A stretch of DNA of 64,000 nucleotides from a virus (IMGVR_UViG_3300033416_000001:7649-71648), one strand, 5' to 3'; shown: positions 11,958 through 38,223, numbered from the stretch's first letter. Notes: generated from the sequence alone by a model not told the origin. Numbers and translations are program-made.

Positions 11958-12096
11958 ACATGAGGACAATGACGCACTCATCCTGGCCGTTATCTTTATG
12001 GTCGCCGTAGCCCTGGTCACCATCGCTATCCAGGTGGGCCTGACCGCCCGCACCTGGGCCTACCTGTCACGCATCGAGGGGCTCTTGAGCCAGTGA
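11947..12096 (+). CDS. small single-TM protein (49 aa)
   Basis: Read by hand: MPDKHEDNDALILAVIFMVAVALVTIAIQVG...; RBS AGGAG; stop overlaps TerL start. Confidence 0.6.
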   Translation: MPDKHEDNDALILAVIFMVAVALVTIAIQVGLTARTWAYLSRIEGLLSQ

Positions 12097-13925
12097 GACT
12101 CTCTACCCAGCAGGAAGAACTCGTCCGTACCTACCTGTGCAAGAACCTCCGCGCCGAGGAGCTTGCCGCGGGACACTTCCTTGATCGCCTCGACGATCAG
12201 GATGTGCGCATGGGTCTGGCCGAAATCGACCTGGAGTTCTTCAATCGCTTCTACTTAGCCCAGCACTTCAACCTCCCGCCCGCCCCCATTCACCGTGTAT
12301 TGACCAAAAAACTGCAGAACCTGCTCGAAACGCCCGGCAGGCGCAACGGCGTCTATGTCATGCCCCGCGGCCACGCCAAAACAACCATCGCCACCCTCGG
12401 CCTCCCCCTCTGGTGCACCGCTTTTCGCAAAAGAACGCATATTCCCATCATCTCCGACTCGTTCGACCAGGCCAAAGACCAACTTGAGACGATTAAGCTG
12501 GAATTGGAAGAAAATGACCTGTTTTGTGAAGATTTCGGCGAATTGCGAGGCGAAACATGGCAAGCTGCGGATATTATGACCAAAAACCGCGTCAGAATAC
12601 GTGCTTTGGGCCAGGGAATGAAGGTCAGAGGCCGAAAAGTAGGCCGCGAGAGGCCAGACCTCATCGTTGTCGACGATATAGAAGAAATCGAAGGCGTACA
12701 GAGCCCTGTTCAGCGCGAACAACTGCGCCGTTGGTTCCGCGGATCACTCATGCGCTCGGGCTGGCGCGACACCAAAGTGGTCGTCATCGGTAACCTGCTG
12801 CACCACGACTGCCTCCTGGCCAACCTGTTGAAGAACCCACTGTTCGACTCTGTTGTGTTTAAGGCCCTGGAGGCTTACCCCGTCCGCGCCGACCTATGGA
12901 GCCAGTGGCGCGGCCTCGTCACTGACCTCTCCAACCCGAACAAAGAGAAGGCTGGCCACCAATTCTATGAGCAGCACCGGGCCGAGATGGACGAGGGCGC
13001 CAAGGTCGCCTGGCCCGACGCTATGCCGCTCTACGATCTTATGCTCGTTCAGGTGTCCGAAGGCGAGTATTCCTTCAATATGGAGTTGCAGAACGACCCC
13101 AAGGATCCTAACCGCCAGTTGTTTACCGCTTATCAGACCTACCGCTCCGAAGTGCGCGATGGTAACGAGGTGTGGATCGTGCCGCTGAACGGCAGGCCAG
13201 CCTGCAAACTGTCCGATTGCCTGATCTTTGGATTCACCGACCCGTCCCTGGGCGAGAGCAGCCGCGCTACCAAGTCCGCTATCGCCATCGTCGCCAAACT
13301 GCCCTATGGCACCATGGTGTCACTGGAGTCGGACGCCAAGATCCGGCCCCCCCACGAGATCATGAAGGCGCAGGACGCCTGGGCCATGACCTACCGCATC
13401 CTCATGTGGGGTATCGAAAAAGTGCAGTTCCAGGCCCTGTTCGCTACCCGCTCCTCCGAGATCAGCGCCGAGAGAGGTATCTATCTACCTATCGCCGCCA
13501 TTCCACAGTCGGAGAACAAAGACCTCCGTATCCAGAGCCTGCAGCCCGACCTGGAAAACGGGTACCTGCTGTTGCCCGAGCACGGCCAGGAGGAGCTCAA
13601 ACAAGAGTTGGCCGAGTGGCCCACCGGGGCCTACAAAGACGCCGCCGACGCCCTGGAGGGTGCCCGCACCATGGCCAAGCGGTGGAAGCCCATCATCGGC
13701 GCGGAGAGCGTGCAGGCCGAGGTGTACCAGTTCAGCAAGGAGCAGCGGCGGGACGCCCGCCCGGGCGAGAGCAACGACCCCTACGCCGAGTGGGATGCCC
13801 TGGCCGACGAAAAGCTGCGCGAGCTGCGGGCTGCACGCGAGGTCGAGCGCGAGGCACCTCTGCCGATGTCTACGGGAGATCTGCTCGCCAAGGTTGTGCG
13901 TGTTGGCGACGGGACGCAGTTGTGA
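12093..13925 (+). CDS. terL: terminase large subunit
   Basis: Walker A PRGHAKTT, RPDLIVVDDIE Walker B, VIGNLLH motif, C-terminal RNase H-like DPS...DAADA. Confidence 0.95.
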   Translation: MRLSTQQEELVRTYLCKNLRAEELAAGHFLDRLDDQDVRMGLAEIDLEFFNRFYLAQHFNLPPAPIHRVLTKKLQNLLETPGRRNGVYVMPRGHAKTTIATLGLPLWCTAFRKRTHIPIISDSFDQAKDQLETIKLELEENDLFCEDFGELRGETWQAADIMTKNRVRIRALGQGMKVRGRKVGRERPDLIVVDDIEEIEGVQSPVQREQLRRWFRGSLMRSGWRDTKVVVIGNLLHHDCLLANLLKNPLFDSVVFKALEAYPVRADLWSQWRGLVTDLSNPNKEKAGHQFYEQHRAEMDEGAKVAWPDAMPLYDLMLVQVSEGEYSFNMELQNDPKDPNRQLFTAYQTYRSEVRDGNEVWIVPLNGRPACKLSDCLIFGFTDPSLGESSRATKSAIAIVAKLPYGTMVSLESDAKIRPPHEIMKAQDAWAMTYRILMWGIEKVQFQALFATRSSEISAERGIYLPIAAIPQSENKDLRIQSLQPDLENGYLLLPEHGQEELKQELAEWPTGAYKDAADALEGARTMAKRWKPIIGAESVQAEVYQFSKEQRRDARPGESNDPYAEWDALADEKLRELRAAREVEREAPLPMSTGDLLAKVVRVGDGTQL

Positions 13926-13937
13926 TAGGAATGCCCC

Positions 13938-14213
13938 ATGACAACCGCGAGCGCCGTCAAAAAGTACCGCGATGCGGGCCTGTGCCGCGCTTGCAAGAAG
14001 TATAACCCGGCGGCAATCGACAATTGCGAGGTAGAGCAAGAACTGTATGAGTTGTGCCGGAACAACGGGATCATCGCGTCGGTCTGGCACTGCAACGATT
14101 TCGAGCCCGTGGAGGAACGTAATGCCGGACAACCAGGTCCAAATCATCATGCCCGTCTATCGCGCGTTCACTCTGGCCAAGGCCGCCATCCAGAGCTGCT
14201 TATCCCTGACTGA
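13938..14213 (+). CDS. small Cys-motif hypothetical protein
   Basis: CRAC...C...WHC; 3' end overlaps the next gene by about 90 nt. Confidence 0.5.
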   Translation: MTTASAVKKYRDAGLCRACKKYNPAAIDNCEVEQELYELCRNNGIIASVWHCNDFEPVEERNAGQPGPNHHARLSRVHSGQGRHPELLIPD

Positions 14214-14952
14214 GTGGCCCTTCCACCTATGGGTGGCAGATGATTGCAGCCACGACGCAGAACTGGATAATTACTTACGCCGCCTCCCGGTCAATATGGT
14301 CTCCACCTACCGCGCCGAACGCCGCCGTGGGTTTGGCGACCTGTGCAATTATATGGCCAATCAGCAGGCCAAGACGGGGCCGCTCTGCTTTCTGAACTCC
14401 GACACCCAGGCCATGCCCTTTTGGCTAACACACATGATGAGGGCCATGCTCGCCGATGACAAGATCGGCGTCGTTGGCGCCAAGTTGCTTTACCCGCCGG
14501 AACGCGCCGAGCGAGCTTACAAGATTCAGCATTGTGGCGTGGCCCGCGACAAGACCGGCTCTCCTTATCACATTTGGCGGGACAAAGAGTACAATTACCC
14601 GCCAACGCTTGTCGATCGCTATGTGAACGCGATCACAGGCGCATGTATGCTCGTGCGGCGGGAATGCTGGACGAACCTGCACGGATTCGACCGCGCCTAT
14701 GAATTTTGCCAGTTTGAGGACGTCGACTTTTGCTGGAGAGCCCGCAGAGCGGGGTGGAAGGTGTACTTGTCAACCCGCGCGGTTTTGCTCCATTATGAGC
14801 ATGGTACCGGGGAGGCGTTTGCCTATCAAAAGCATGACCACAACCGCGCGATACTCTTACAACGATGGGCCGGGCTCGATTCGGATGAGGCCATGTTTGA
14901 TTCGGAGGGCGTCAATGCTGTCGGTGATTATCCCGGTCTACAACCGGCATGA
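14122..14952 (+). CDS. glycosyltransferase family 2
   Basis: ATG 14122; IIMPVY, VADDCS, FLNSDT, VNAITGACMLV, FEDVDFC. Confidence 0.9.
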   Translation: MPDNQVQIIMPVYRAFTLAKAAIQSCLSLTEWPFHLWVADDCSHDAELDNYLRRLPVNMVSTYRAERRRGFGDLCNYMANQQAKTGPLCFLNSDTQAMPFWLTHMMRAMLADDKIGVVGAKLLYPPERAERAYKIQHCGVARDKTGSPYHIWRDKEYNYPPTLVDRYVNAITGACMLVRRECWTNLHGFDRAYEFCQFEDVDFCWRARRAGWKVYLSTRAVLLHYEHGTGEAFAYQKHDHNRAILLQRWAGLDSDEAMFDSEGVNAVGDYPGLQPA

Positions 14953-15778
14953 CAACCTGCTGCTGTGCCTGGCTGCGCTCGATCGCCAGGATTTCCGCGA
15001 CCTTGAGGTCATTGTGGCCGATGATGGGTCAACCGATGACCCGCTGGCAGTGCTGACCGATCGCCCATGGCACTTCTCCCATCTCTATGCCCGCCAGCCC
15101 CACCTTGGCGTGCGCATTGGCCAGGCCCGCAACATGGGCCGGCGCCTGGCCCGCGGCGCGGCCCTCGTCTTTATCGACTCGGATGTCCTGCTCAACCCGA
15201 CGGCGCTGGGCCATTATGCCAAACTGCACGCGGCCAATCCGACTGCGATCATCGCGGGCCGCTACGACTGGCTGTCGCCCATGGTCGTTACAATGGAGGA
15301 TGTGCAACATCGCTGGCAGAGCGTCGTGGCCCAAGAATTGACCGCCCTCCCTATCAAAAAGCCACGACCGGGGCTGGAAGGAAACGACCCCCGGGCAGGG
15401 CCGCCAAGCCTCTTCGATTCGTCCAGGGTTGTCTTTGACGGCTATTGCCTGTCTGTATATTCTGGCAATATGCTATGGCCCGTTGCGCTATTTGATGCGC
15501 TCGGCGGATTCTCCGAGGAGATGATTGGCCACGGCGGCGAGGACTGCGAGTTGGCCATGCGCGCCCAGGAGAGCCACTATCCAGTAATCTTCTCCGAAGA
15601 GGTGGGGGGCTATCATGTCTGGCATCCCCGCAACCAGGAGGCCAATGTGGCCGAAGTGCTGCGCAATATTGAGTATATCAAGTCAAAACACGACTTGGCG
15701 GCGCTGGGCATCAGCCAGGGAGACCCGGCCAAGAACCAATTGCCGCTGATAGGAGATGCTGAAAATGAAGAAGGATGA
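14915..15778 (+). CDS. glycosyltransferase family 2
   Basis: ATG 14915; SVIIPVYNR, VADDGSTD, FIDSDV, GGFSEEMIGHGGEDCE. Confidence 0.9.
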   Translation: MLSVIIPVYNRHDNLLLCLAALDRQDFRDLEVIVADDGSTDDPLAVLTDRPWHFSHLYARQPHLGVRIGQARNMGRRLARGAALVFIDSDVLLNPTALGHYAKLHAANPTAIIAGRYDWLSPMVVTMEDVQHRWQSVVAQELTALPIKKPRPGLEGNDPRAGPPSLFDSSRVVFDGYCLSVYSGNMLWPVALFDALGGFSEEMIGHGGEDCELAMRAQESHYPVIFSEEVGGYHVWHPRNQEANVAEVLRNIEYIKSKHDLAALGISQGDPAKNQLPLIGDAENEEG

Positions 15779-16331
15779 GACGCAAATCCTGCCCGATGCC
15801 AAGGCAGGGTGGGACAAAGACTGGAAACGGGTCGGCGCAGAGTATTACTGGCGCCTGCGCGGGCACTACCACGTCGTGGAGACTTACCTGCATGGCGCGG
15901 TGCTCGACATCGGTTGCGGCCCAGGCTTTCTGGCAGGCAAAGTGTTCCCCAACGAGGGCTGGTACACCGGCGTCGACATTTCGGAGGAGGGCATCGCACA
16001 AGCCAAAGGGCTCTTCCCTGGGGCCCACTTCAGCGCCTTAGACGTGACCAAGCAATCGCTGCCCTTCCCTGACCGGTCATTCGATACCGTCGTCCTCTCC
16101 GAGATCATTGAGCACCTGGAGGACTCGACGAAGGTTCTGGCCGAGGCCAAACGGGTCTGTAGAGAATACCTCGTGATTACCCTGCCTATCTCGATGGGGG
16201 GCGTCGGCCATGTTTGGCCTACCTGGGCGTATGCCGATGTCGTGGCCAAATGCGCCGGCCTTGGCACAATCTTGGAACTTCGCGAGTGCCGCGAGCACAA
16301 CTTTTGGCTAGTCTGGATCAGGAGAGCGTGA
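15756..16331 (+). CDS. class I SAM-dependent methyltransferase
   Basis: VLDIGCGPG, GVDIS, LPFPDRSFDTVVLSEIIEHL. Confidence 0.9.
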   Translation: MLKMKKDETQILPDAKAGWDKDWKRVGAEYYWRLRGHYHVVETYLHGAVLDIGCGPGFLAGKVFPNEGWYTGVDISEEGIAQAKGLFPGAHFSALDVTKQSLPFPDRSFDTVVLSEIIEHLEDSTKVLAEAKRVCREYLVITLPISMGGVGHVWPTWAYADVVAKCAGLGTILELRECREHNFWLVWIRRA

Positions 16332-17161
16332 TGAGCAAGATCGGCTTTGTCATACCAACCTACAACCGCTCGCAGAACTTGGCGCTCGTACTAAGGGCGC
16401 TCTCTGTACAGGCGGGCGTAACGAAGGAACTACAAGTTGTCGTCGCCGACGATGGTTCGCTTGACTATGGCGCAACCAGCAACACGGTCAAAGGTTTCTC
16501 CGGCCTGGCTGTGCGCTACCTGTGGCGCCCGCACGACGGGTATGGCGTCTCCTGGATGCGGAACCGCGGTGCACGGCTGCTTGACCCGGACACCACCCAT
16601 GTCTGGTTTGTCGATAGCGATGTCCTACTGAACCCGGGCGCCCTGGCACATGGCTATGAGCTTGTGGACAAGTATCCCCAGGGCGTGGTAATCTGCGGCA
16701 AGTACGATTGGCTGCCGCCGATGGTGATTACTGCAGATGATGTCGTGCACCATTGGGACAAGCTGGTTGGGGCCGCCCTGCCGCCCAAGCAGGTGGATTA
16801 TACGCCCAACCTCCTCGGGAATGACCCGCGCTTCTCCGGCAGACCCGAGCTATGGAACTGCAGCGCCCTGGTGGAGCAGTTCCGTGGCGGAACCTTGAGC
16901 GGCAACTTGATTGTGCCGATGGCCCTGATGAACGAGACCGGCGGTTTCGACGAGGCGATCAAGGGCCAGGGCCAAGATTGCGAGTTCGGCTATCACCTCC
17001 AGGCGGCAGGAGCCCGGGCCGTCTTCTGCTCGCACATCATAGGATATCATGTCTCACACGAGATGGACATCAAGTGGAAAACGGCGAGCGTGCGCGAGAC
17101 CATCCGCTATATCCACAAAAAGTATGGGATCCCGCTGGACGAGGAGAAACTGCCCCAATGA
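16331..17161 (+). CDS. glycosyltransferase family 2
   Basis: ATG 16331; FVIPTYNR, VADDGS, FVDSDV, GGFDEAIKGQGQDCE; paralog of 14915..15778. Confidence 0.9.
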   Translation: MSKIGFVIPTYNRSQNLALVLRALSVQAGVTKELQVVVADDGSLDYGATSNTVKGFSGLAVRYLWRPHDGYGVSWMRNRGARLLDPDTTHVWFVDSDVLLNPGALAHGYELVDKYPQGVVICGKYDWLPPMVITADDVVHHWDKLVGAALPPKQVDYTPNLLGNDPRFSGRPELWNCSALVEQFRGGTLSGNLIVPMALMNETGGFDEAIKGQGQDCEFGYHLQAAGARAVFCSHIIGYHVSHEMDIKWKTASVRETIRYIHKKYGIPLDEEKLPQ

Positions 17162-17781
17162 CGAAAACCGGCTTGGATGTTGGTTGCGGCGATAAGATGA
17201 TCGCCCAAACTCAGAAGATGTTCCCTGACGTCCACTGGGTAGGCATTGACCAGCATGACTTTGGCCGCCTATACCCCAAGGGCACCTTCCTGCGCCACAA
17301 TCTGGCCAATTGGCTCCCGTTCCAGGAGGGCGAGTTCGACCAGATTTGGTGCCACCACGTATTGGAGCATCTGCCGCCGCTTCACCCGACCCGACAATCC
17401 GAGACCGCGCCGCCGTCAGACTTCCTCGTTTTCGTCGTGAACGAGTTCTGGCGCGTGCTCAAGGTGGGCGGCGAGGCCCATCTCGTGGTGCCCTGGATAG
17501 AACACACCAACGCTTGGCGCTCGCCCATACACTATCGCTTCTTCAACCACGAGACGTTCCATTGGTTCAGTTGGTCAGTTATGCGCGCCGAGCATGAGGA
17601 ATCCGGGTTGTGGAGCAAATGGCAAGTGCTGCGCTGCGAGGTCGTCGATCAGTGCCATGTCTACGGCATCCTGCGCAAACTCGCCTGGGCCGCCGGAGAA
17701 CTGCAGCAAACGTTGGGCCCACAGGCAGTGGATTGGGCCGCGGAATGGCGCAATAGGGCGAAGATGGAGGGGAATAGTTGA
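17158..17781 (+). CDS. class I SAM-dependent methyltransferase
   Basis: ATG 17158; LDVGCG, LPFQEGEFDQIWCHHVLEH, RVLKVGG, P.H.RFF. Confidence 0.88.
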   Translation: MTKTGLDVGCGDKMIAQTQKMFPDVHWVGIDQHDFGRLYPKGTFLRHNLANWLPFQEGEFDQIWCHHVLEHLPPLHPTRQSETAPPSDFLVFVVNEFWRVLKVGGEAHLVVPWIEHTNAWRSPIHYRFFNHETFHWFSWSVMRAEHEESGLWSKWQVLRCEVVDQCHVYGILRKLAWAAGELQQTLGPQAVDWAAEWRNRAKMEGNS

Positions 17782-18065
17782 ATACCAGCTCTTCTATCCT
17801 GTTGAGTCGGTCGTCTCTCGAACGGGAGTTTGCATCCTATATAGTGCGGGCAGAGGCGATGCTACTCGATCTCGGCATTCTCTGCGGCTTGTCCCGTGAA
17901 GAAGTCCTGGCATCATTGAAGTTGGAGTACGAACGACGAGGAGGAGCGAACTCCTTTGGTGATTTATTGGATTGGAGCCGAGAATATGCCGCAGAGCACG
18001 GCTGCCTGCCTTTCATGACTGTGGTGCAGTTCCCGGGCGCTGCGGCGGAAGGGTCGGCGAGATGA
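17778..18065 (+). CDS. hypothetical protein
   Basis: 95-aa ORF with 4-nt overlaps on both sides. Confidence 0.55.
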   Translation: MNTSSSILLSRSSLEREFASYIVRAEAMLLDLGILCGLSREEVLASLKLEYERRGGANSFGDLLDWSREYAAEHGCLPFMTVVQFPGAAAEGSAR

Positions 18066-18769
18066 GGTTCGCTTCGCTGGTGGTGCTGTCCTATAACCGC
18101 ATGGCCTATCTGCGGCGCAGCCTGGCGTCGCTGTGGGCTAACACCACCTTCCCGTACCAGCTCATCATCTGCGACGACGCGAGCAATGCCGAAACTGCGC
18201 GCTATGTTACGGATTTGGTAACTTCCGGCCAGGTCAGCACCGCCTTGCTGAACGGCGGGCACAACATGGGTATCGGCACGGCGTTCAACCGCGGTGCGGC
18301 AATCGCTCAGGGGCACTTCTTGGTCAAGCTGGATGCCGACCTGGAGTATGCCCCAGGCTGGCTAGAGACAGTGGTTCGCCTGTTGGACGAGCAGCCAAAG
18401 CTCGGCTGTCTGGGTATGTTCAAGTATCACCACCAGCCATGCAACTTCGAGGACGAACTGATCGCCGATCGCGGCGACCACTATGAGGTAGTGGATTTTG
18501 TGGGCTCGGCGATCGCCATGCGTAGGCAGATCTACGATGAGTTCGGTCCCTGGCGGCAGGACGAGCATCATTTCTCCGAGGACGTATCGTTCAAGAACAA
18601 GGTACAGGCCGCGGGGCACTACCTGGGCTTGACCCACGAGGACGTCATCACGAACTTTGGCTTTGGTGAACAACACTCGTCACTTATCAAAGTCATCGAC
18701 TGGAAAGATGGTAAGCATACCTACAACATCCCTGACCCGAGGCCGCTGCTGTTTGGGAGCAAGCGATGA
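18062..18769 (+). CDS. glycosyltransferase family 2
   Basis: ATG 18062; VVLSYNR, ICDDAS, KLDAD, FSED. Confidence 0.88.
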   Translation: MRFASLVVLSYNRMAYLRRSLASLWANTTFPYQLIICDDASNAETARYVTDLVTSGQVSTALLNGGHNMGIGTAFNRGAAIAQGHFLVKLDADLEYAPGWLETVVRLLDEQPKLGCLGMFKYHHQPCNFEDELIADRGDHYEVVDFVGSAIAMRRQIYDEFGPWRQDEHHFSEDVSFKNKVQAAGHYLGLTHEDVITNFGFGEQHSSLIKVIDWKDGKHTYNIPDPRPLLFGSKR

Positions 18770-18966
18770 CCCAACCCTGCACAATCGCCCACACCGAACC
18801 TAAAAATCTCGTGGACATACGGGATCCGCAGACCAACCGGCTCATTTTGCAATTTGATAAAAAGAGTGGTATAATATACATCAAGCACCGTGGTAGTTGG
18901 TACATTGTTATCCTGGGTCAGGCACAGACAGTCAGCGATGTCGTGAAAGTTACGGGGGAATTGTGA
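18766..18966 (+). CDS. hypothetical protein
   Basis: 66-aa ORF, ATGA overlap. Confidence 0.55.
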   Translation: MTQPCTIAHTEPKNLVDIRDPQTNRLILQFDKKSGIIYIKHRGSWYIVILGQAQTVSDVVKVTGEL

Positions 18967-19298
18967 CCGCAGTAACGCCAATGTACGAAGATCCCGATAC
19001 GGGACTCAAAGAACTCGTCCTATTTCATGCCGTGTCCCAGGGTTGGCTGAATGAGACCGTGCGCGTGCTGCGCGTGCCGGGACCGGTTGACCTGGTAAAG
19101 CTGCCTATAGCGGCCACGCCGGATAGCCCGGCCATCGTTGAAACCGTTGAGTTGGGGGATCAGATTGAGCACGTGACCGTGAGCGGCTTGCATCGGATCA
19201 TCAAGCTCGGCTTTGGTGAGAAAACCAACAGCATTGTCTTTTCGGTGGGCGGCGCCTTTAGCTTGGCGCCCGCTCCAAAACACTCGACAAACGATTAA
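18963..19298 (+). CDS. hypothetical protein
   Basis: GTG 18963 behind GGGGGA; overlaps previous stop. Confidence 0.6.
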   Translation: MTAVTPMYEDPDTGLKELVLFHAVSQGWLNETVRVLRVPGPVDLVKLPIAATPDSPAIVETVELGDQIEHVTVSGLHRIIKLGFGEKTNSIVFSVGGAFSLAPAPKHSTND

Positions 19299-19327
19299 GC
19301 GCACCTAGCGCGACAACTGAGCGCCCA

Positions 19328-19380
19328 GAGCGCCGACCACTCCCCTGTAGACGCGGAGAGGAACGGCGCTCTTTTTATTT
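19328..19380 (+). terminator. intrinsic terminator in front of the portal gene
   Basis: GAGCGCCG / CGGCGCTC stem followed by TTTTTATTT. Confidence 0.65.
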
Positions 19381-19394
19381 CAGGGGTAGACCCA

Positions 19395-20891
19395 ATGACT
19401 TATGACCCGGCACAACTGGATAAGGCGAAGCTCCCCCTCAGAACCCGCATAGCCAGGCGCATCGCCGGCTCCTCCTGGCCGCAGCCTCCGCCAGACGAGG
19501 ATACGACTGCGCGCGGCTATAGCGAGCAGGCATTGGAGAGCATCCGGCAACAGTTCTTCAATGTTTCTGATGAGCGGTACCAGGTCTACAAAGATGCTCG
19601 CAAGATGGACGAGACGATGGACGAGGTGGCCACGGCCCTGGACATGGCCGCCGACAATGCGTTCTCGACCGAGGCAGGCCAGGAAGAGCCGTTCACCATT
19701 GCTTACCTGGAAGAGAGCACGCCCAAGTACCTGCGGGCCATCGTAGAGGGCGTGCTGGCCCGCACCGACTGGCGCAATAAGGGTATGGAGATCGCTCGGG
19801 AGCTTTTGCTGATGGGCGACAACTTCCTGCAATACGTGGTGGACGATCATTATGACATCGTCCGGCTGATGTATATGCCGCAGGAATCCATGATCCGTAA
19901 CGAGGATGAGGTCGGGCTGCTCCTGCGGGGGAACACCCCAGGGGAATATGCCTTTGAACAGCATTACCCGGACGGCGGGGCTTTTATCGCTGGATTCAAG
20001 CCCCACGAGATCCTGCATCTGCGCTGGAAGAAGTCGGGCCGGCGCGTCTATGGGCGCTCTCTCCTGTACACGGCGCGGGCTTCCTGGAAAAAGCTCCAGG
20101 CGATGGAAGAGGCCCTGGTCATCAACTGGATCACCAGAGCGTTCGCTCGCTTGCTCTTTACCCTGGACATCACTGGCAAGGGGCCGAACGAAGCCTTGGC
20201 GGCCATGACCGAGTTCAAGCGCAGTCTGCAGACGCGCAAGATTGCCAAGGATGTGACCGGCATGGAACAGTTGGCCGTGGTTGCCGACATCTTCATGGGC
20301 CGGGCATATCATGAGATGGGCGGTCGCGCCGAGCCGAGCTTGACCGACGCCAAAGTCTTGGACACCTCCTCGACCGGTTACCAACAAATTCGGCCCATCG
20401 AGTATTACCGTGATCGCATTTTGGCCACCCTGCGCACGCCCAAGGCATACCTTGGCCTGGAAGAGGATATCAATGCCAAGGCCACGCTGGTGCAGGAAGA
20501 TCGCCGCTATCAACGCTTTATTCGCAGTATCCAGGCAGTCATCGGCCAGGGGATCCGGCAAACGATCGACCTGCAACTGGCGTTGCGTGGGATTGAGCCA
20601 CGTCGCGTTCCTTATGTGGTGCAGTGGTACGCGCCGACCTGGGGCGACCTCATTGAGGACGCACAGGCCCTGAACAATTACGCGCAGGCAGATACGCAAT
20701 ATCTGGCTCTCGGGATCATTGACAAGGAATGGGTGGCCAAGCGTCATCTGCGCATGAGCACGGCAGAATTCGCCGCAGTGTTGGAGCGGGTCGAACGGGA
20801 TGGTCTGACGACGATGCCACCCAAGGCGGACGCGGCTGCTGAACCTGAAGACAACGAGGGCGATGAGCCCGAGGAAGGGGCGACCAGTTGA
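19395..20891 (+). CDS. portal protein, T4 gp20-like
   Basis: HLRW, YGRSLLY.AR..WKKL..MEEALVI..ITRA, IEYYRDRILATLRTPKAYLG. Confidence 0.9.
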   Translation: MTYDPAQLDKAKLPLRTRIARRIAGSSWPQPPPDEDTTARGYSEQALESIRQQFFNVSDERYQVYKDARKMDETMDEVATALDMAADNAFSTEAGQEEPFTIAYLEESTPKYLRAIVEGVLARTDWRNKGMEIARELLLMGDNFLQYVVDDHYDIVRLMYMPQESMIRNEDEVGLLLRGNTPGEYAFEQHYPDGGAFIAGFKPHEILHLRWKKSGRRVYGRSLLYTARASWKKLQAMEEALVINWITRAFARLLFTLDITGKGPNEALAAMTEFKRSLQTRKIAKDVTGMEQLAVVADIFMGRAYHEMGGRAEPSLTDAKVLDTSSTGYQQIRPIEYYRDRILATLRTPKAYLGLEEDINAKATLVQEDRRYQRFIRSIQAVIGQGIRQTIDLQLALRGIEPRRVPYVVQWYAPTWGDLIEDAQALNNYAQADTQYLALGIIDKEWVAKRHLRMSTAEFAAVLERVERDGLTTMPPKADAAAEPEDNEGDEPEEGATS

Positions 20892-21532
20892 AGATTACCG
20901 CTATCGTGACCGCAGGGGGGATGCAGGGCAGGTGGACGGCGCCTAGCTGTAAACACCTGGCCGTGGTCGAGGGCCAGTCGCTACTGTTGCGCTTAGTGCA
21001 ACAGTTGGAGACATTCTGTGACCGCATCTCTATTCTCGCCTGGCGTCCCGAGATTCGTGCTCTATGCCCGGAGGCATGGATGCCGGAGATAAGCTACCGG
21101 GAAGACCTCCTGCCCGTGCTGCAGGCGACGGAGAAGCTGTGGGACGAGCGCACCCTGATTGTGCACGGCGATGTGGCCTTTGGCACAGAGACGATGGACT
21201 GGCTCAAGAATTGGCGCGGTTCCCTGGGCTTCCTGGGCACCGAGAGCGATATCTTTGCCATGATGTTCGCTAGAATCAACAAGGCTAAGATCCGCCGGGC
21301 CATGGATGAGGCGATCGCCTACGGGTTCTCCAGCAACCCGCTTCAGCATGGCCGGCTCAAGCTGTGGAGCCTGTACCGCCATTTGGTCGGGGCCGATCCC
21401 GGACAACACGAGTTTGGGCAGGATCGCACTTTCCACCATTCGCGAGACTGGACAATGGATGTGGATACCCTGGGCCAGTACGTCCTGCTCCAAGAGGTAA
21501 TGAGGCGGGCACGGGCCGCCGGGAAATTGTAG
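20888..21532 (+). CDS. nucleotidyltransferase family (GT-A fold, MobA/LicC-like)
   Basis: IVTAGG...RW...CKHL..VEGQSLL.R, IVHGDV, DWTMDVDT. Confidence 0.75.
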   Translation: MKITAIVTAGGMQGRWTAPSCKHLAVVEGQSLLLRLVQQLETFCDRISILAWRPEIRALCPEAWMPEISYREDLLPVLQATEKLWDERTLIVHGDVAFGTETMDWLKNWRGSLGFLGTESDIFAMMFARINKAKIRRAMDEAIAYGFSSNPLQHGRLKLWSLYRHLVGADPGQHEFGQDRTFHHSRDWTMDVDTLGQYVLLQEVMRRARAAGKL

Positions 21533-21542
21533 GAGATAGGCC

Positions 21543-22886
21543 ATGCCGTTTACAAAGGGCTCGATACCCCCCAGGCTGAAGGACAAAGGCGTTCCGCAGA
21601 GCTTTGCGGATCAATGGATCGAGGTCTGGAACAGCGTTTATGAACGCACCCAGGACGAGGGCGCCGCCTATGCGCAGGCCAATGGCGTGCTGCACAAAGC
21701 AATGGTCAAGGCCGGTTATAGCAAGGACAAGGATGGCGTTTGGCACAAAGGTGAGGAGGTTGATATGCCCAAAGGCAAAAAGGCTGTGGTTGAGAATATC
21801 CCTGAAGGAGAAGCCCTGATCGGCTTTTCCCGCGATTTGGTTGTGGTCGAAGAGAACGACAAGGGAATGCGCGTCAAGGGCGTGGCCCTGGTAGACGAGG
21901 CCATCAGCAAGAACAATCGCTACTATGGCGGCAGGTTTAACGACAAGGCGACCGAGGAAACGAACCAGTACATGGCCCAGGGCAACCTGGTGACTCTGTA
22001 CAGCCGCCACGCCAAGGCCCTGCCGCACGATGGCGCGGTGCGCGACCTGCCGGTGGGCCAAGTTGTCAAGCCGCTGGCCCGTGAGGGCAGAGTGATCGTG
22101 TACGAGGCGGTCATCGCCCCGACGCAGGACGGCAAGGATGTAATGGCCCTCCTGCGCACGTTCAAGAAACTGCCCACGTCGATCCGCTCGACGCGGTATG
22201 AAAGTCGCATGGTGCAGATGAATGGTCAGCCCGTGGAGGAGATGCTGAGTGCAGTGATCTGCGGCATCGACTTCACTGACGAGCCTGGCATTGAAGGCGC
22301 TGGTGTCAGGGAGATTCTGGAGGAAGCGCCCAAGATCGAAGAAGTAAAACAACAGGAGGAAGAGGACATGGATCTCAAGGAATTGACGCTGGCGATGTTG
22401 GAAGAGAATCGCAAGGATCTGCTCGAACAGCACGCCGCCACTGTCCTTGAACCTCTCCGAGCCGCGATGCAGGAGCAGACCAAAAAGACGGCAGACCTGG
22501 AGGGTGCAAACACTGCTCTCTCCGCCAAGGTCACTGAGCTTGAGGCGGCCCTGGCTGCGGCTGGTCTACAGACGAAGATTGCCGAAGCATCACTCATCGG
22601 GAAGATGGAACGCACCGTCTACGAGGAGCTGAAGCAGACTGTGCACGAGGAAGCGGACCTGGCGAAGGCCGTGCCCGCCGCTCGTGACAAGGCATTCATC
22701 GCCTACGCCGCGGGAATCTCCAGCGGAGAGCCGACTGGTGGTAACGCCAAGGGTTCTTCCAGCGCCGAGAAACTCGCCGAAGAGGGCAAGGCCGGAGCAG
22801 CCGCCGAGGATGACGACGAGGAACTGACCGAAGAGTTCCAGGACATCCTCAGACTCGCGGGCGCGAAGCCGCGGGTAGCAAAGTAA
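21543..22886 (+). CDS. prohead protease/scaffold with N-terminal ChaB-like domain
   Basis: N-term MPFT...PP...QWIEVWN.VY...E..AY..A....GY.K.KDG.W; central SKNNRYY...H...LPVG; acidic coiled-coil C-term; directly upstream of the capsid gene. Confidence 0.8.
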   Translation: MPFTKGSIPPRLKDKGVPQSFADQWIEVWNSVYERTQDEGAAYAQANGVLHKAMVKAGYSKDKDGVWHKGEEVDMPKGKKAVVENIPEGEALIGFSRDLVVVEENDKGMRVKGVALVDEAISKNNRYYGGRFNDKATEETNQYMAQGNLVTLYSRHAKALPHDGAVRDLPVGQVVKPLAREGRVIVYEAVIAPTQDGKDVMALLRTFKKLPTSIRSTRYESRMVQMNGQPVEEMLSAVICGIDFTDEPGIEGAGVREILEEAPKIEEVKQQEEEDMDLKELTLAMLEENRKDLLEQHAATVLEPLRAAMQEQTKKTADLEGANTALSAKVTELEAALAAAGLQTKIAEASLIGKMERTVYEELKQTVHEEADLAKAVPAARDKAFIAYAAGISSGEPTGGNAKGSSSAEKLAEEGKAGAAAEDDDEELTEEFQDILRLAGAKPRVAK

Positions 22887-22898
22887 GGGAGGACACAC

Positions 22899-24098
22899 AT
22901 GGATCCAAAGGTGAAGAGGGTCGGCTCCGAAGTGTTGATCGCGGAGCAGGACGGGGCTTACGAGACGTGGGTGAGTGAGCGGCACGCCTACGTTGACGGC
23001 CTCATTGATAAGTGGATGCCGCTCATCGAAGGCACGCGCAAACAGGCGCTCAAGCCCATTGAGCCGCGGCACTATGCGGCGATGGCGATACTCTTCGAGA
23101 ACCAGGTGCTGGCGACGCAGCGGGCCCTGGGTGAGGCGACCAAGACAAGCGATGTTGTGCTGCCGGTGAAGTATACCCTGCCCATCGTCCGCCTGGTCTT
23201 CCCGGAGCTGATGGCCATGCGCATCGCGTCTGTGCAGCCCATGCCGATGTCCAGCGGTGGCGTGATGAAGGTCTTCTATCAGGACTTCCTGAAGGAAGAT
23301 CTCTCTGATGAAAGCGTCTCCGTCCCGGACTGCGACTACTCGGATGGCGCAGAGAACTCGGTGCCCAAGCGCATCAAGATGTCGATCACCTCTGACCAGG
23401 CGACGGCAGTCAAGAAAATCCTGGGCGCGAGTTGGTCACAGGAAGTGGAAGAGGATGCCGCGGGCGCGCTGAACATCAACGTGGAGGCCGAACTGGTCAC
23501 CCAGATGTCCGGCCAAATCCTGCGCGAACTCGACCAGATCATGCTGACCGAGATGCTCGTCTTCGCGACTGCGGGCAACGTGCCGTGGTCGTGGACGGTT
23601 CCTGCGAACACCCTGGCGAAGGATTACTATGAGACGCTCGCGCACGCCATGATCGACGCCGAAGACCTGGTCTACGGCTACCGCTATCGCCCCTGCGATT
23701 ACGTAATCGGCGGACGGAACTTCATTAAGTACGTCCGCAAGATGCAGGACTTCAACGCTACGCCGCGCAATCAGCCGGGCGAGGCGTTCTCGATGGGCGT
23801 CGAGAAGGTGGGCGAGGTCACGGGGTTCTGGGACGTGTGGATGAGTCCGTACCTGCCGACAAACCGCGCCTTCATGGGCTACTATCCTCGGACTGAGACC
23901 GATACGTGCTATATCTTTGCGCCGTATGTGCCTCTGACTCCGATGCCCAAGGTGTACGCCGAGTATCTGCCGCATGACGATGCCACTCTTCCGGGTGCCT
24001 ATGTGAACACCGACAAGTGGTCGCGCAACGTGCGCACTCGCTACGCCAAGAAGTTTGTCGTGCCGCGGGGTATTGCGACACTCTCCATCGGCGCGTAA
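22899..24098 (+). CDS. major capsid protein, T4 gp23-like
   Basis: LFENQ, LPIVRLVFPELMA..IASVQPM, LGASWSQEVEED, EAELVTQMS.QILRELD, YIFAPYVPL, RTRYAK. Confidence 0.92.
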   Translation: MDPKVKRVGSEVLIAEQDGAYETWVSERHAYVDGLIDKWMPLIEGTRKQALKPIEPRHYAAMAILFENQVLATQRALGEATKTSDVVLPVKYTLPIVRLVFPELMAMRIASVQPMPMSSGGVMKVFYQDFLKEDLSDESVSVPDCDYSDGAENSVPKRIKMSITSDQATAVKKILGASWSQEVEEDAAGALNINVEAELVTQMSGQILRELDQIMLTEMLVFATAGNVPWSWTVPANTLAKDYYETLAHAMIDAEDLVYGYRYRPCDYVIGGRNFIKYVRKMQDFNATPRNQPGEAFSMGVEKVGEVTGFWDVWMSPYLPTNRAFMGYYPRTETDTCYIFAPYVPLTPMPKVYAEYLPHDDATLPGAYVNTDKWSRNVRTRYAKKFVVPRGIATLSIGA

Positions 24099-24116
24099 GA
24101 CGCAAGGGGGGCCCCG

Positions 24117-26036
24117 ATGTTGGTGCGCAATAACACCGCAGTCAGACAGTTAGACTCGTTGAGCGGGACGTTGCTTGAGGCCGCCCCGCTCAACGAGTGG
24201 GTTGACGTCCCTTACGAGGTAGCGATGCGCCTGTGGCGCTTCCGCGTGGTCGACGTGCAAAACCCAGGGGATATGAAGAACGCACTGTTCAAGGAAGCAG
24301 ACGGCACCCATATTTTCTGGGCCAGCCCGTTCTCTCTGGGCGATGGATACGGCACGGCGGCCTCGCAACTGGTGCTGGCAGCAACCCGGGCCGGTATGCA
24401 CATGCACATCGCCTGGACTTGGTTCCACAGCCTGTACGGGGTCGATCCGCAGATCAAGAGCATGTTGGCGGAGACCTTGCCAGGCCCACTGAAAGTCGGC
24501 GTCTGTATGGCCACCCCAGGTGAGTTTCGCAAGCTGCCAACGCCTTTCAAGGTGGGCTACACGATGTATGAGTCGGACGACCCGCTCAAGAATCTACCAG
24601 AATGGCGCCACGATATGACCGCAATCGACCTGTTGCTGGTGCCGAGCGAATACTGCAAGGAGGTCTTCGCTCCTTTCACGCCCTGCCCGATTGAGGTCGT
24701 GCCGCTCGTCGCCAACCCGGCCTATCGCGTTCAGCCAGGAGAGCGCACACGTAAGCCTGGGCAGACGTTTGTGTTCGGGATACACGGAACCTTGACTGAG
24801 CGCAAATCCCCATTGGAGATCGCCGAGGCGTTCCGAAAGGCGTTCCCGACCGAGAAGGATGTGCAGCTTCAATTCAAGACCCGCTTGGGCGTTCTTGGCG
24901 CCGGGCAAGACCAGATTCCGGCCCTGGGGGATAGGCGGATCAAGGTCATTGACGAAAACTGGCTAGAAGCACGCCTGCGCAACTGGCTGGTTAATACGGT
25001 AGACTGCTTCCTGTTCTTGACCAAGGGCGAGGGGTTTGGAATGCCACCCCGCGAGGCGATGCTGGCCGGCTGCCCACTCATCTTCTCCAACCATACCGGC
25101 ATGGTGGATATGGCCAACCCTGCTGTGAACTGGCCCATCGGCTGGGAGGCCAAGGAGAATAGCCCGCTGGGTGGAACTTGGCGTATGCCAGATTGGGACG
25201 AGGCCGTGAAGGCGATGCGCTGGGTCTACGAACACCGTGATGAGGCGCAGGCCAAGGGCTTTGCCGGTGCGGAATGGTATGAGGCAACCCACGGTCCGGT
25301 GCCAGTTGCGGCCAGGTTTGCCCAGGTCATCAATGCGATTGACCCAAGCAAGACGCACCGGGAGCCGATCAAGCCTGCAGAGACCATCGACACACTCACT
25401 GGAGCGGAACACGATTCCTTCTATCAGGCGCTGACGCTGGCCATCCCGCCAGGCAGTACGGTGGCCGATGTGGGCGTCGGTGGAGATGGCATTCTGTACA
25501 AATGGCTCGTCGGGCATGGCTACAAAGTGGTGGGAATTGTCGAGAAGGGTCGGGAAGCCGGTGTGCGGGCGGCCCTGGAGAAACACGGGCTGCCAGTCAA
25601 TTTGGATGTAGTGACGCGGCTGGTTGACCTGCATCTCCTGAGGCTGGGCGTGGACGCCTATGTTTCGCAGAACGTGCTGCAGGATTACCAGAGGCATGAG
25701 GTCGAGTTGATCTTGCGATCCTGCCTAATCGGCAATAAGCCAGTCTGGTTTTCGGTGCCAACGGTGTACTTCCCAACTCCCTTTGGCCCAGGCGCGAAAT
25801 TGCGCCGGCGCGCCAACTGGGAAGACATCCTGATCGACTTTGAGTTTGAGATGCACTACTACGGCAGCGGGCACCGCTACCTGTGGGCCAGGGTTGTCCG
25901 CCTAGAAGAGGGGTTCCGAGCGAGCTTCGAGGCCACGGGGCGGCAGCGCGGATTGACGACTGATGGCGTCTGGCACCCACAGGCGGAGCGGCAGGCCGAT
26001 GGCATGGTGACGAGGGGAGACCGCGATGCCGCATAA
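24117..26036 (+). CDS. glycosyltransferase family 4 fused to methyltransferase-like domain
   Basis: GYGTAA, YTMYE, LLVPSEY, RKSP, EGFGMPPREAMLAG; C-term VADVGVGG and YVSQNVLQ. Confidence 0.88.
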   Translation: MLVRNNTAVRQLDSLSGTLLEAAPLNEWVDVPYEVAMRLWRFRVVDVQNPGDMKNALFKEADGTHIFWASPFSLGDGYGTAASQLVLAATRAGMHMHIAWTWFHSLYGVDPQIKSMLAETLPGPLKVGVCMATPGEFRKLPTPFKVGYTMYESDDPLKNLPEWRHDMTAIDLLLVPSEYCKEVFAPFTPCPIEVVPLVANPAYRVQPGERTRKPGQTFVFGIHGTLTERKSPLEIAEAFRKAFPTEKDVQLQFKTRLGVLGAGQDQIPALGDRRIKVIDENWLEARLRNWLVNTVDCFLFLTKGEGFGMPPREAMLAGCPLIFSNHTGMVDMANPAVNWPIGWEAKENSPLGGTWRMPDWDEAVKAMRWVYEHRDEAQAKGFAGAEWYEATHGPVPVAARFAQVINAIDPSKTHREPIKPAETIDTLTGAEHDSFYQALTLAIPPGSTVADVGVGGDGILYKWLVGHGYKVVGIVEKGREAGVRAALEKHGLPVNLDVVTRLVDLHLLRLGVDAYVSQNVLQDYQRHEVELILRSCLIGNKPVWFSVPTVYFPTPFGPGAKLRRRANWEDILIDFEFEMHYYGSGHRYLWARVVRLEEGFRASFEATGRQRGLTTDGVWHPQAERQADGMVTRGDRDAA

Positions 26037-26616
26037 CCTGACCCTGCACATGCTGGTCAAGAACGAGGCGGCCCGTCTGCGCAAGCTGCTGCCGCACGTG
26101 GCGCCCTACGTTGACGAGATGTCTATCGCCGTCGACGACCTGACGAGTGACGACACAGCAGAGGTGTGCCGGCCATTCACTGACAAGGTCATCCAGGTTC
26201 CACTCAACTGGGACTTTGCCTCGGCGCGCAACCCATCGCTGGACATGGTCAAAACGCAATGGGTGCTACACCTCGATGCCGACGAGTGGCCCATGACCGA
26301 ACTTTTGGACTACATCGTGCGTTGGATACAAGGGCCGCAGAGCAGAGGCAAGGCCGGGTTGGTCGTTTGGCGGCACAACCTGGTGGGTGGGAAGCCCATC
26401 AACGGCAACACTTGGGAGCGCCACGTGCGCGTGTTCTGGTTCAGTTACCGCTTTGTGGGGCGCATCCACGAGCAACTGGATAACTTCCCGATCACGAGAT
26501 TGGCCGTGGCTCCGCGCGCCTTCTTTATCCAGCATTACAAGACGAATGAAGAGCAGGGCGCGCAGAACAAGCACTATCAAGAGTGGCCCGAGCAGCGAGC
26601 GATTACTGGAGAATAG
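26026..26616 (+). CDS. glycosyltransferase family 2 (short, LgtF-like)
   Basis: LHMLVKNE, VDD..SD.T, FASARN, LHLDADE, GRIHEQL, HY. Confidence 0.88.
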   Translation: MPHNLTLHMLVKNEAARLRKLLPHVAPYVDEMSIAVDDLTSDDTAEVCRPFTDKVIQVPLNWDFASARNPSLDMVKTQWVLHLDADEWPMTELLDYIVRWIQGPQSRGKAGLVVWRHNLVGGKPINGNTWERHVRVFWFSYRFVGRIHEQLDNFPITRLAVAPRAFFIQHYKTNEEQGAQNKHYQEWPEQRAITGE

Positions 26617-26619
26617 GCT

Positions 26620-27333
26620 ATGGCGATCACGCTTTGCGAACTAATGCAGGCCATAAGGGATAACTTCACGAGCGACACAATCACCGACGCAGTGTTGACC
26701 CGCAGGATCGCCGCGGCAGTGCGCTTTTACAGCCGCTACAACCCGCTCGTAGTACGGGTCAATCTTACGACCGTTGCCAATCAGCAAAACTATGCGCTGC
26801 CGGCCAACACTCTTTCGGTTATGGATGTGGATTGGTGGTCAACGGCGATTGAATCAACCGGCGGTCTTGGCCTGGGCGCCGGAGCGGAGCCATGGCCCTA
26901 TGATGACGACTATCTCTGGGAGGGCGTATCTTACGACCAGTGGTCGCTGCGGGCTATCGCCGAGATCAAGCGGTCGGAACGCGCCAGGAGAACGCGCGGG
27001 GCCTGGTGGGTGATGAACACCGACTTGATGCTAGATCCCATTCCGGCAGAGGCGGGCAAGATAGTTCGCGTGCTCTATGCTGGGTTGCACGCCATCAACG
27101 TCGGCGGCACGAGCTACACGAGCATCCCGCTTTACGATCTGGAGATCCTGCGCGACCTGGCAATGGCCGAGGTCATCAGCGCCAAGGGTGCTGACTTAGC
27201 AGGCGAGCCGGACTATAGCGAGGGCTTGTTCAGCATCAGCCATCGCTTCGCTAGGCAGAGTGTCGCGGAATGGATCGGCGCGCTGCGGCAGTCTTGCATA
27301 GCCAAGTACCGGCAGGAGTTTGCGTTCACATGA
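26620..27333 (+). CDS. putative head-tail adaptor
   Basis: Size and position after head genes; helical N-term, LMLDPIP beta segment. Confidence 0.55.
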   Translation: MAITLCELMQAIRDNFTSDTITDAVLTRRIAAAVRFYSRYNPLVVRVNLTTVANQQNYALPANTLSVMDVDWWSTAIESTGGLGLGAGAEPWPYDDDYLWEGVSYDQWSLRAIAEIKRSERARRTRGAWWVMNTDLMLDPIPAEAGKIVRVLYAGLHAINVGGTSYTSIPLYDLEILRDLAMAEVISAKGADLAGEPDYSEGLFSISHRFARQSVAEWIGALRQSCIAKYRQEFAFT

Positions 27334-37590: not shown

Positions 37591-38223
37591 ATGGCGCTGC
37601 GCACCTGGGAAGATCGCGCGAAGGAAACAGTAGCAAGGAAGCTTGCGAGCTACGAGCCGAAGGTTGTGTACACCCGGGCGCTCGTAGGGGATGGGGCCGG
37701 CCATCTGGAAGTTCCAAACTGGCCGGGATACTACTGGGTGCGCCTGCACGGAGACCAGGATCGGCTAGTCATGGCCGAGGGTAGCTACTCTCCCGCTTAT
37801 GACACCTACGTTACGGTGATGATCGATGAACACGACATCCACCAGTACCGCATTTGTAACGCCGGAGCATATAGCACAGGGGGAACCGGTGGCGGGACGA
37901 CCGTTATTAGCGGGCCGTATCTCAGAGCGTGCCGCCTGGTGTCATTTGATATTACAGATTATACTGCCACAGTGCTCGTGGGCGAGGTGGAATTAACTGG
38001 GGTTCAAGTTCTCTGGAGCATTCGGCCCGATCTGATGAAAGAGGGCACCTATGCCATGATTACCTTGGCGGACACCGCAACACCTACGTATGTCCTCATC
38101 GGATTGTTCGGCGGAGCTCCGGATACCGATCCGGCCTTTGATCCTGAGGTGGGCCACAAACATCGCGGCATTGGCAATGATGGCCCGCGGATCAACGAAG
38201 GCGACTTGGTAATAGTGGAGTGA
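37591..38223 (+). CDS. minor tail protein
   Basis: ATG 37591; position; C-term H.H.G..NDGP motif seen in tail proteins. Confidence 0.55.
   Translation: MALRTWEDRAKETVARKLASYEPKVVYTRALVGDGAGHLEVPNWPGYYWVRLHGDQDRLVMAEGSYSPAYDTYVTVMIDEHDIHQYRICNAGAYSTGGTGGGTTVISGPYLRACRLVSFDITDYTATVLVGEVELTGVQVLWSIRPDLMKEGTYAMITLADTATPTYVLIGLFGGAPDTDPAFDPEVGHKHRGIGNDGPRINEGDLVIVE

Follow-up and report, generated by a model that had tools for sequence, protein, structure and literature searches.

The locus described here belongs to an uncultured virus, IMG/VR record IMGVR_UViG_3300033416_000001, whose 71,648 bp sequence ends in 127 bp direct terminal repeats (DTRs) and is rated complete. Our analysis concerns 64,000 nucleotides of this record (bases 7649–71648; hereafter, the window), and all positions are counted from the first base of that stretch. 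Among 50,697 cultured phage records, no nucleotide match to the region was found. A structural block runs rightward from ~12.1 kb: the large terminase subunit (TerL), a T4-type portal, a protease/scaffold, a gp23-type major capsid protein (~23% identical to jumbo-phage gp23 homologues) and an SU10-type adaptor, and, further downstream, a tape-measure protein of 1160 residues as well as large tail proteins bearing PKD, Laminin_G_3 and CBM96 domains. Nine genes for predicted carbohydrate-active and accessory enzymes, all on the plus strand, are set among the head genes at three places: (i) between TerL and portal, (ii) between portal and protease, and (iii) between capsid and adaptor (Table 1). 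We argue that this cassette probably serves to glycosylate the virion.

All nine enzyme genes named in the original prediction, a reading of the sequence alone, are real open reading frames (ORFs). Five encode family 2 glycosyltransferases (GT2a–GT2e); every one exceeds the gathering score of the Pfam family Glycos_transf_2 (23.3 bits; observed range 39–79 bits), and a six-frame search of the complete genome recovers exactly these five matches and no others. Across two complete genomes, all GT2 matches fall within the head module. The DXD motif, together with a DD nucleotide-binding motif, is retained in GT2b–GT2e, whereas in GT2a NSD takes the place of DXD. The top match of GT2b in the PDB is the chondroitin synthase K4CP (E 5e-25), with DSD at residue 88, and GT2b and GT2c match each other's orthologues in tblastn. 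The two predicted stand-alone methyltransferases (MT1 and MT2) likewise hold up as members of Methyltransf_11, and MT1 has no match to DNA-methylase families. The catalytic motifs of the cassette are intact: DXD in four of the five GT2s, EX7E in the family 4 glycosyltransferase (GT4) and GxG in the stand-alone methyltransferases.

Hydropathy analysis reveals no membrane segment in any of the nine enzymes (maximum 19-residue value below 1.2 in all). In the genome, no polytopic membrane protein of the size of Wzx, Wzy or an oligosaccharyltransferase is seen; ORFs with three or more hydrophobic segments are only antisense shadows or a 139-residue ORF. The remaining 53 ORFs of the genome contain no carbohydrate domain and no base-modifying domain. 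The enzyme genes are co-oriented with TerL, portal and capsid genes and mostly overlap their neighbours, as had been described: junctions are overlaps of 1–38 nt or gaps of 3–18 nt, the exceptions being TerL/GT2a (~120–200 nt) and a gap of 96 nt before portal. Terminator-like sites occur at chance level (15, vs 14.0 in shuffled sequence). Since G+C content at third codon positions is the same in enzyme genes (0.69–0.78) as in structural genes, the enzyme genes are not recent imports. The site most like a sigma-70 promoter in this region (TTGCAA-17-TATAAT, upstream TG present) lies at 18847–18875 inside the 66-residue ORF ahead of portal, and could be an internal promoter for the portal–capsid block.

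The gene directly after the capsid gene was predicted to encode a GT4–methyltransferase fusion (GT4-MT), and the two halves are recognized by different means. The GT4 half is detected by Pfam (Glycos_transf_1 at residues 221–338, 28.2 bits vs a gathering score of 26.4) and by PHROG 2170 (residues 143–406). The N-terminal 410 residues have the GT-B fold of two Rossmann domains and the EX7E motif; of its two glutamates, E313 is found in all 44 homologues and E305 in at least 90% of them. An AlphaFold2 (AF2) model of the whole fusion has a mean predicted local distance difference test score (pLDDT) of 90.3. The PDB fold matches listed are GT-B enzymes, mostly named GT4: chlorovirus NY2A B736L comes first (E 2.9e-14), followed by MshA, BshA, PimB' and a methylmannose-polysaccharide mannosyltransferase.

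The methyltransferase half is not detected by Pfam, which returns only MetW (E 0.035) on the fusion protein, and comes into view by profile and fold. A clade profile of the C-terminal 215 residues gives 74 PDB matches at E ≤ 10, almost all of them named methyltransferases (best E 4e-4); precomputed Methyltransf_25/11 matches exist on four fusion homologues; and the C-terminal domain of the model has a Rossmann-type β/α pattern. Motif I (D-x-G-x-G) is conserved, with G453 and G456 retained in at least 90% of the 44 homologues, and of ten sequences, eight have an acidic residue (E or D) after strand 2 and two have N or A there. We accept the modelled fusion at the level of fold, not as proven activity. 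An hhalign comparison of the fused domain with MT1 aligned only the 15-residue motif I (probability 21%) and so gives no support for close kinship of the two. Membership of the GT4-conflict family PF20706 was rejected for the window protein (16.3 bits, E 0.005, below the threshold of 26 bits). A GT4 homologue in a Chloroflexi locus passes that threshold (L027, 58.5 bits), and many clade homologues carry a precomputed match to the family; the window protein is therefore a diverged relative of it.

The ninth enzyme, a predicted nucleotidyltransferase between portal and protease, is a genuine ORF of less certain identity, its NTP_transf_3 match remaining below the gathering score. It carries AGGMQGRW, i.e., a G-G-x-G-x-R nucleotide-binding loop, and an ESM-Atlas search (feature score 0.98) aligns it to NTP_transf_3 families with template-modelling (TM) scores of 0.73–0.82. 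A single-sequence AF2 model was not used (pLDDT 37.7). No sequence relatives were found in the PDB, in cultured phages or in IMG/VR, nor any word-sharing protein among 5.8 billion. In every relative the gene is absent from this position, portal and protease there being ~250 nt apart; it is a lineage-specific insertion.

Table 1. Genes of the enzyme cassette and of the surrounding head module (window positions).
Feature	Position	Strand	Matches and remarks
Large terminase subunit (TerL), left border of variable island	12093–13925	+	PHROG 38, E 1.8e-82; 38–52% identical in relatives
GT2a, soluble GT-A glycosyltransferase	14122–14952	+	Glycos_transf_2, 43 bits; Glyco_tranf_2_3, E 9.6e-12
GT2b, GT-A with Glyco_transf_7C-type C-terminal part	14915–15778	+	Glycos_transf_2, 75 bits, E 8e-21; Glyco_transf_7C, E 5e-6
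MT1, class-I S-adenosylmethionine (SAM) methyltransferase, small-molecule/O-methyltransferase type	15756–16331	+	Methyltransf_11, E 1.5e-17; motif VLDIGCGPG
GT2c, GT-A, GT2b paralogue	16331–17161	+	Glycos_transf_2, 52 bits, E 1.1e-13; DSD at residue 95
MT2, second class-I SAM methyltransferase	17158–17781	+	Methyltransf_11, E 1e-6; motif GLDVGCGDK
95-residue ORF inside island	17778–18065	+	4 nt overlaps on both sides
GT2d, GT-A, best-conserved island gene	18062–18769	+	Glycos_transf_2, 79 bits, E 6.8e-22; DAD at residue 91
Two small ORFs (66 and 133 residues) between island and portal gene	18766–19298	+	No family matches
Portal protein	19395–20891	+	Portal_T4, E 2e-27
Putative MobA-like nucleotidyltransferase, candidate sugar or alditol-phosphate activating enzyme	20888–21532	+	NTP_transf_3, 23.9 bits (gathering score 27)
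Head maturation protease/scaffold-like protein	21543–22886	+	PHROG 207, E 1.8e-6; syntenic in all relatives
Major capsid protein, T4 gp23-like	22899–24098	+	Pfam Gp23, E 1.6e-23; PHROG 138
GT4 (GT-B, retaining type) fused to class-I methyltransferase-fold domain, 639 residues	24117–26036	+	Glycos_transf_1; PHROG 2170; directly after capsid gene
GT2e, short GT-A, second member of conserved capsid-side pair	26026–26616	+	Glycos_transf_2, 39 bits, E 9e-10; DAD at residue 84
Head–tail adaptor, right border of system	26620–27333	+	SU10_adaptor, E 4.7e-8

Capsid and portal queries retrieved 22 related loci from IMG/VR, in which genes were mapped by tblastn; a TerL query for related viral contigs found none. 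Comparison of these loci with the window reveals two points of interest. Firstly, the capsid side of the cassette is conserved. The order capsid, GT4-MT, GT2e, adaptor is kept in nearly all relatives that reach that far—at least 14, down to portal identities of 33–39%—and GT4-MT is conserved to a degree similar to that of the structural proteins (36–60% identity, vs 36–65% for the capsid protein). Throughout the clade, the gene that comes directly after the capsid gene is GT4. GT2e is 34–49% identical and syntenic in most relatives (it is absent from L006, L019 and L023), and the GT4 protein of L020 is without the methyltransferase domain. The extreme C-terminus of the capsid protein is itself conserved, as A-T-x-[S/T]-[I/V]-x-x in 13 relatives.

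Secondly, the interval between TerL and portal is hypervariable. In eight loci (L007–L009, L011, L013–L015 and L023) it holds an island of 5–12 genes; GT2a orthologues, 34–45% identical, adjoin TerL in the same eight. The layout places GT2a, GT2b and GT2c at the TerL end, with GT2d recurrent (52–56% identical in L007, L011 and L013–L015) and the remainder variable: MT1 has orthologues in L011 and L013 (46–47%) and is absent from L007, and MT2 has orthologues in L007 (54%) and L015 (43%). The complete relative G006, in which the island spans the contig ends, retains GT4-MT and five GT2s. A census of 70 island ORFs from ten relatives counts 28 GT2s, seven DegT aminotransferases, seven class-I methyltransferases, three Glyco_trans_1_2 proteins, and two each of GT1, RGP and hexapeptide acyltransferase; an epimerase/dehydratase, a rhamnosyl O-methyltransferase and a GNAT protein occur once each. 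Two further ORFs of the 70, in two relatives, are DNA N6/N4 methylases (best E 3.3e-36). The window phage alone carries the nucleotidyltransferase and the small ORFs at 17778–18065 and 18766–19298, the first of which has no Pfam, PHROG or NCBIfam match and no tblastn match in any relative.

The original prediction regarded nine enzymes as unusually many. This is true by comparison with the four of mycobacteriophage Corndog; within the clade it is not, L015 having 12 ORFs, mostly sugar enzymes, in the TerL–portal interval. The islands of L011 (5875–9959) and L015 (2149–8679) contain Glyco_trans_1_2, PylC-like ATP-grasp ligase, NAD epimerase/dehydratase, DegT, RGP-family, GNAT and rhamnosyl O-methyltransferase (PF04989) genes, a set that, going by these family assignments, would equip these relatives to produce and modify amino or deoxy sugars. 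In L017 (3269–3562; 45% portal identity), TerL is followed directly by portal without an island, on a contig that stops before the capsid gene. The cassette is a trait shared across a whole clade of uncultured phages.

Beyond these loci, full-length GT4-MT homologues form ~60 clusters at 90% identity, all of them metagenomic, with no contig longer than 70 kb. When 1.84 billion representatives were searched with a profile, ~20 full-length clusters at 50% identity were found, together with close relatives of ~400–450 residues that are without the methyltransferase domain. The closest GT4 module (P0105–P0152) also occurs three to six times in tandem inside giant proteins of 1000–5000 residues; two clusters of these giant multi-GT4 proteins have KSB1 and Fibrobacterota metagenome-assembled genome (MAG) source names, and one member is labelled FkbM methyltransferase. 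Among species-representative genomes there are two full-length matches; they lie on short contigs that show phage synteny and were binned to Pirellulales and Dehalococcoidia. Matches to the GT4 domain only (24–33% identity) lie mostly in Chloroflexota MAGs (Anaerolineae, Aggregatilineales, Litorilinea, Ardenticatenia and CFX3), several on contigs of 270–675 kb, and several of these Chloroflexota loci have homologues of the window's tape-measure protein or 909-residue tail protein a few kb downstream of GT4.

In three Anaerolineae MAG loci (L028:8822–10981, L035:8577–10786 and L036:8926–11149), a capsid gene of the Phage_capsid_4 family (PF25209) lies directly upstream of a GT4 gene (24–32% identity with the GT4 domain of the window phage) within a phage-like structural operon, two of the three on contigs of 570–675 kb. 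The capsid-then-GT4 order is therefore kept across two capsid families. We name Chloroflexota as the likeliest host phylum, but only tentatively. None of five Chloroflexota genomes with the capsid–GT4 pair has a relative of the window TerL; the elements in them are of other lineages.

We consider it rather probable that the cassette is a system, co-transcribed with the head genes, for cytoplasmic glycosylation of proteins of the phage's own virion, the capsid being the likeliest acceptor. Late in infection, GT4-MT would act as the priming transferase and place a first sugar on a Ser or Thr of the major capsid protein; the conserved Thr-x-Ser/Thr at its extreme C-terminus is, from its sequence, a candidate glycosylation site only, and further virion proteins may also be acceptors. 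GT2e would then extend from the first sugar, and the four GT2s of the TerL–portal island would lengthen the chain stepwise using nucleotide sugars. MT1, MT2 and the fused methyltransferase domain would O-methylate the sugars, possibly as a chain cap, and the lineage-specific nucleotidyltransferase would supply one activated donor. As the enzymes are soluble and no membrane protein of Wzx, Wzy or oligosaccharyltransferase size is seen in the genome, assembly would be cytoplasmic, where heads are built. As the gene content between TerL and portal differs among relatives, the glycan is probably phage-specific, in the manner of O-antigens between bacterial strains.

The locus may even be a phage 'serotype locus', in which a conserved capsid-adjacent priming pair (GT4-MT and GT2e) is combined with a hypervariable TerL–portal island that diversifies the capsid glycan by swapping GT2s, methyltransferases, DegT amino-sugar genes, acyltransferases, RGP-type enzymes and ATP-grasp ligases. 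This extension is possible, and we hold it with some doubt.

The original prediction had the phage build a complex, methyl-capped glycan on its virion. Enzyme solubility, the absence of a flippase-sized protein from the genome, the confinement of all carbohydrate genes to the head module, the conserved capsid–GT4 adjacency and the lack of matches to precursor enzymes of the DNA route all speak indirectly for this; the acceptor is a proposed one, the case consisting of gene position, solubility and analogy. Several further observations weigh against virion glycosylation. The enzymes have no significant similarity to Corndog gp35–38. The Thr and Ser conserved at the capsid C-terminus may have a structural role, and the nearest non-phage GT4 relatives include the giant bacterial multi-GT proteins, which presumably make polysaccharides rather than glycoproteins. 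The TerL–portal interval is also a general accessory-gene hot spot that includes DNA-modification genes; with N6/N4 methylases in the islands of two relatives, position alone does not fix the target of the enzymes.

Three other readings were weighed. Were the enzymes to act late in infection on host envelope glycans or on the lipid-linked precursors of these, the remodelling could hide the receptor, which would keep progeny from being trapped on debris or would block superinfection. The soluble, peripheral GT2 and GT4 enzymes of O-antigen and teichoic-acid pathways act on lipid-linked acceptors and also are without membrane segments, and solubility therefore does not exclude host glycan precursors as substrates. 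The nearest PHROG families of three GT2s are labelled 'GtrB-like O-antigen conversion' (E 1e-5 to 2e-8); the nearest NCBIfam models are exopolysaccharide, teichuronic-acid and O-antigen transferases, all far below cut-offs; and the CBM96 and Laminin_G_3 modules on the tail proteins make it probable that the receptor is a glycan. However, neither GtrA/GtrB membrane parts (by hydropathy of the nine enzymes and of the genome's ORFs), nor an initiating phosphoglycosyl transferase, flippase or polymerase was found in the genome, the genes belong to the head operon and not to an early or lysogenic-conversion module, and capsid–GT4 adjacency across two capsid families would be left unexplained. We regard envelope remodelling as unlikely. 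A glycosylated virion whose acceptor is a tail or fibre protein is, in our judgement, a little less likely still. The obvious candidate is the 1576-residue, CBM96-bearing tail protein encoded at 38220–42950, with four (Thr-Pro)n tracts (residues 227–256, 423–460, 1082–1108 and 1301–1341): Thr-Pro linkers are classic O-glycosylation sites of secreted bacterial enzymes, and both capsid and tail tube are glycosylated in mycobacteriophages. Yet this protein is unmatched in three relatives searched, among them the complete G006, which keeps GT4-MT and five GT2s; its linkers were rejected as main acceptor on that ground, and the protein is probably a lineage-specific host-recognition protein. The conserved adjacency, moreover, is with the capsid gene.

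Glycosylation and methylation of phage DNA just before packaging, as an anti-restriction hypermodification, is to us a very improbable function of the cassette. Phage GT-A and GT-B enzymes that glycosylate 5-hydroxymethylcytosine (5hmC) do exist and can adjoin terminase genes (bioRxiv 10.1101/2023.12.21.572611); the island described here adjoins TerL, the same interval holds N6/N4 DNA methylases in two relatives, and the genome invests in anti-restriction, with two Lar-domain proteins. Against this, the known routes all need a hydroxylated base, supplied by a homologue of thymidylate synthase or by a TET/JBP dioxygenase, whether or not a C5-methylase takes part, and the methyltransferases of the cassette belong to small-molecule/O-methyltransferase rather than DNA-methylase families. 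Six-frame searches of the complete DTR genome found no thymidylate-synthase homologue (PF00303) and no C5-methylase (PF00145), ThyX (PF02511) not having been searched by family; no match to TET/JBP (PF12851), a search of unproven sensitivity in that no control genome scored above the family cut-off; and no match to TGT/DpdA or to family-A DNA polymerase. As no thymidylate-synthase homologue, TET/JBP, C5-methylase or TGT match is present, DNA glycosylation by known routes is unlikely. The original prediction had reached the same view because the genes are far from the replication module. That argument from distance is weak, since two relatives carry DNA methylases inside the island; the conclusion stands instead on the unmatched thymidylate synthase, 5mYOX and C5-methylase.

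Elsewhere in the genome, replication genes run leftward at 53–57 kb, namely those for DnaB and a DnaD-like protein, alongside a weak match to radical SAM. The last of these is a minus-strand ORF of 316 residues at 53532–54482, just downstream of the DnaB helicase gene, with a sub-cut-off match to Radical_SAM (E 1.1e-4). Two adjacent minus-strand proteins (59628–60587 and 60603–61223) each have a C-terminal Lar restriction-alleviation domain (E 1e-7 and 8e-7). Also outside the structural block are one ORF with a match to Gp3-like recombination-directionality factor (E 9.7e-22) and another with a match to DUF7178 (E 5.8e-33).

In the literature searched, virion glycosylation by phage-encoded enzymes is demonstrated only in mycobacteriophages, where it alters antibody recognition. 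If virion glycosylation is the function of the cassette, then (i) the trait also exists in an unrelated clade of uncultured phages outside Actinomycetota, built from non-homologous enzymes, and (ii) it does so on a larger scale, with nine enzymes here and ~14 in relatives. What would be new is a two-tier system—a conserved capsid-side pair and a hypervariable TerL–portal island—in an uncultured clade that probably infects Chloroflexota. From the variability of the island, virion glycans would seem to diversify in much the way that O-antigens of bacteria do, and the capsid-then-GT4 pair, kept across two capsid families, offers a simple genomic marker for finding such phages. Should the locus indeed act as a serotype locus, virion glycans would be under strong diversifying selection in environmental phages without antibody pressure; possible drivers would include host lectin-like defences, adhesion to a host polysaccharide sheath, and protection from proteases or grazers.

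Among known systems, a distant parallel is provided by the chloroviruses. Protein A064R of PBCV-1 is a GT–GT–methyltransferase protein, in which the methyltransferase acts on sugars, and the methylated glycan of the chlorovirus major capsid protein is made by virus-encoded cytoplasmic enzymes. Among PDB structures, B736L of chlorovirus NY2A (3oy2) comes first in fold matches to the GT4 domain, with 12% identity, but is no better than the matches to many bacterial GT4 enzymes (MshA, BshA, PimB'). Other giant-virus GT4 proteins are also returned by fold searches, again no better than bacterial GT4s, and in a BFVD fold search other viral proteins, one of them named methyltransferase FkbM, align over the whole GT4-MT model. 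Chloroviruses are eukaryotic giant viruses with a double-jelly-roll capsid, and such homology as is seen lies at the level of the GT4 superfamily. Phage DNA glycosylation (T4 α/β-GT; 5mYOX- and ThyS-associated GTs; the arabinosyl-5-hydroxycytosine (5hoC) of RB69) likewise employs soluble GT-A and GT-B enzymes; some of these systems have several in series along with sugar-tailoring enzymes, and some lie close to terminase genes. It differs in that a base-hydroxylating enzyme is unmatched here, and in that the window's GTs are placed among head genes and not in clusters for nucleotide metabolism.

In cultured phages, the GT4 domain has relatives only among the GT4s of actinobacteriophage structural modules (23–25% identity, E 1e-6 to 7e-4), found in Arthrobacter phage KellEzio (gp28, between tail terminator and tail genes), Streptomyces phages such as Bmoc and EGole, and Microbacterium phage Magritte. 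These share with GT4-MT a place in the structural module, but are single-domain proteins of ~366 residues and putative function, without methyltransferase fusion, island or capsid adjacency. A likeness in layout is seen with mycobacteriophages of the Corndog (cluster O), Che8 (cluster F) and Myrna (cluster C) type, in which soluble phage GTs and an O-methyltransferase lie inside a co-transcribed block of head genes (PMC4351075). Corndog has an O-methyltransferase and three GTs (gp35–38) between its portal and protease genes (PMC4351075), a layout confirmed in its sequence record. According to the articles that cite Freeman 2023 (PMC11600133, PMC12619734 and PMC12363180), GTs encoded by mycobacteriophages glycosylate the subunits of their capsid and tail tube. 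In this type of system the glycans are bound covalently, in the C-terminal region of the subunits. The two cassettes differ in several respects: Corndog has four enzymes in a single portal–protease block, whereas the window phage has nine in three places, with a capsid-adjacent GT4-MT fusion and a hypervariable TerL–portal island; the window phage, known from its genes alone, has a T4 gp23-like capsid; and its host is probably a member of Chloroflexota, not Actinomycetota. In a blastp comparison of Corndog gp35–38 with all head-module proteins of the window, the best match (E 0.086) is not significant. On these comparisons, the resemblance between the two cassettes is analogous by design, not orthologous by descent.

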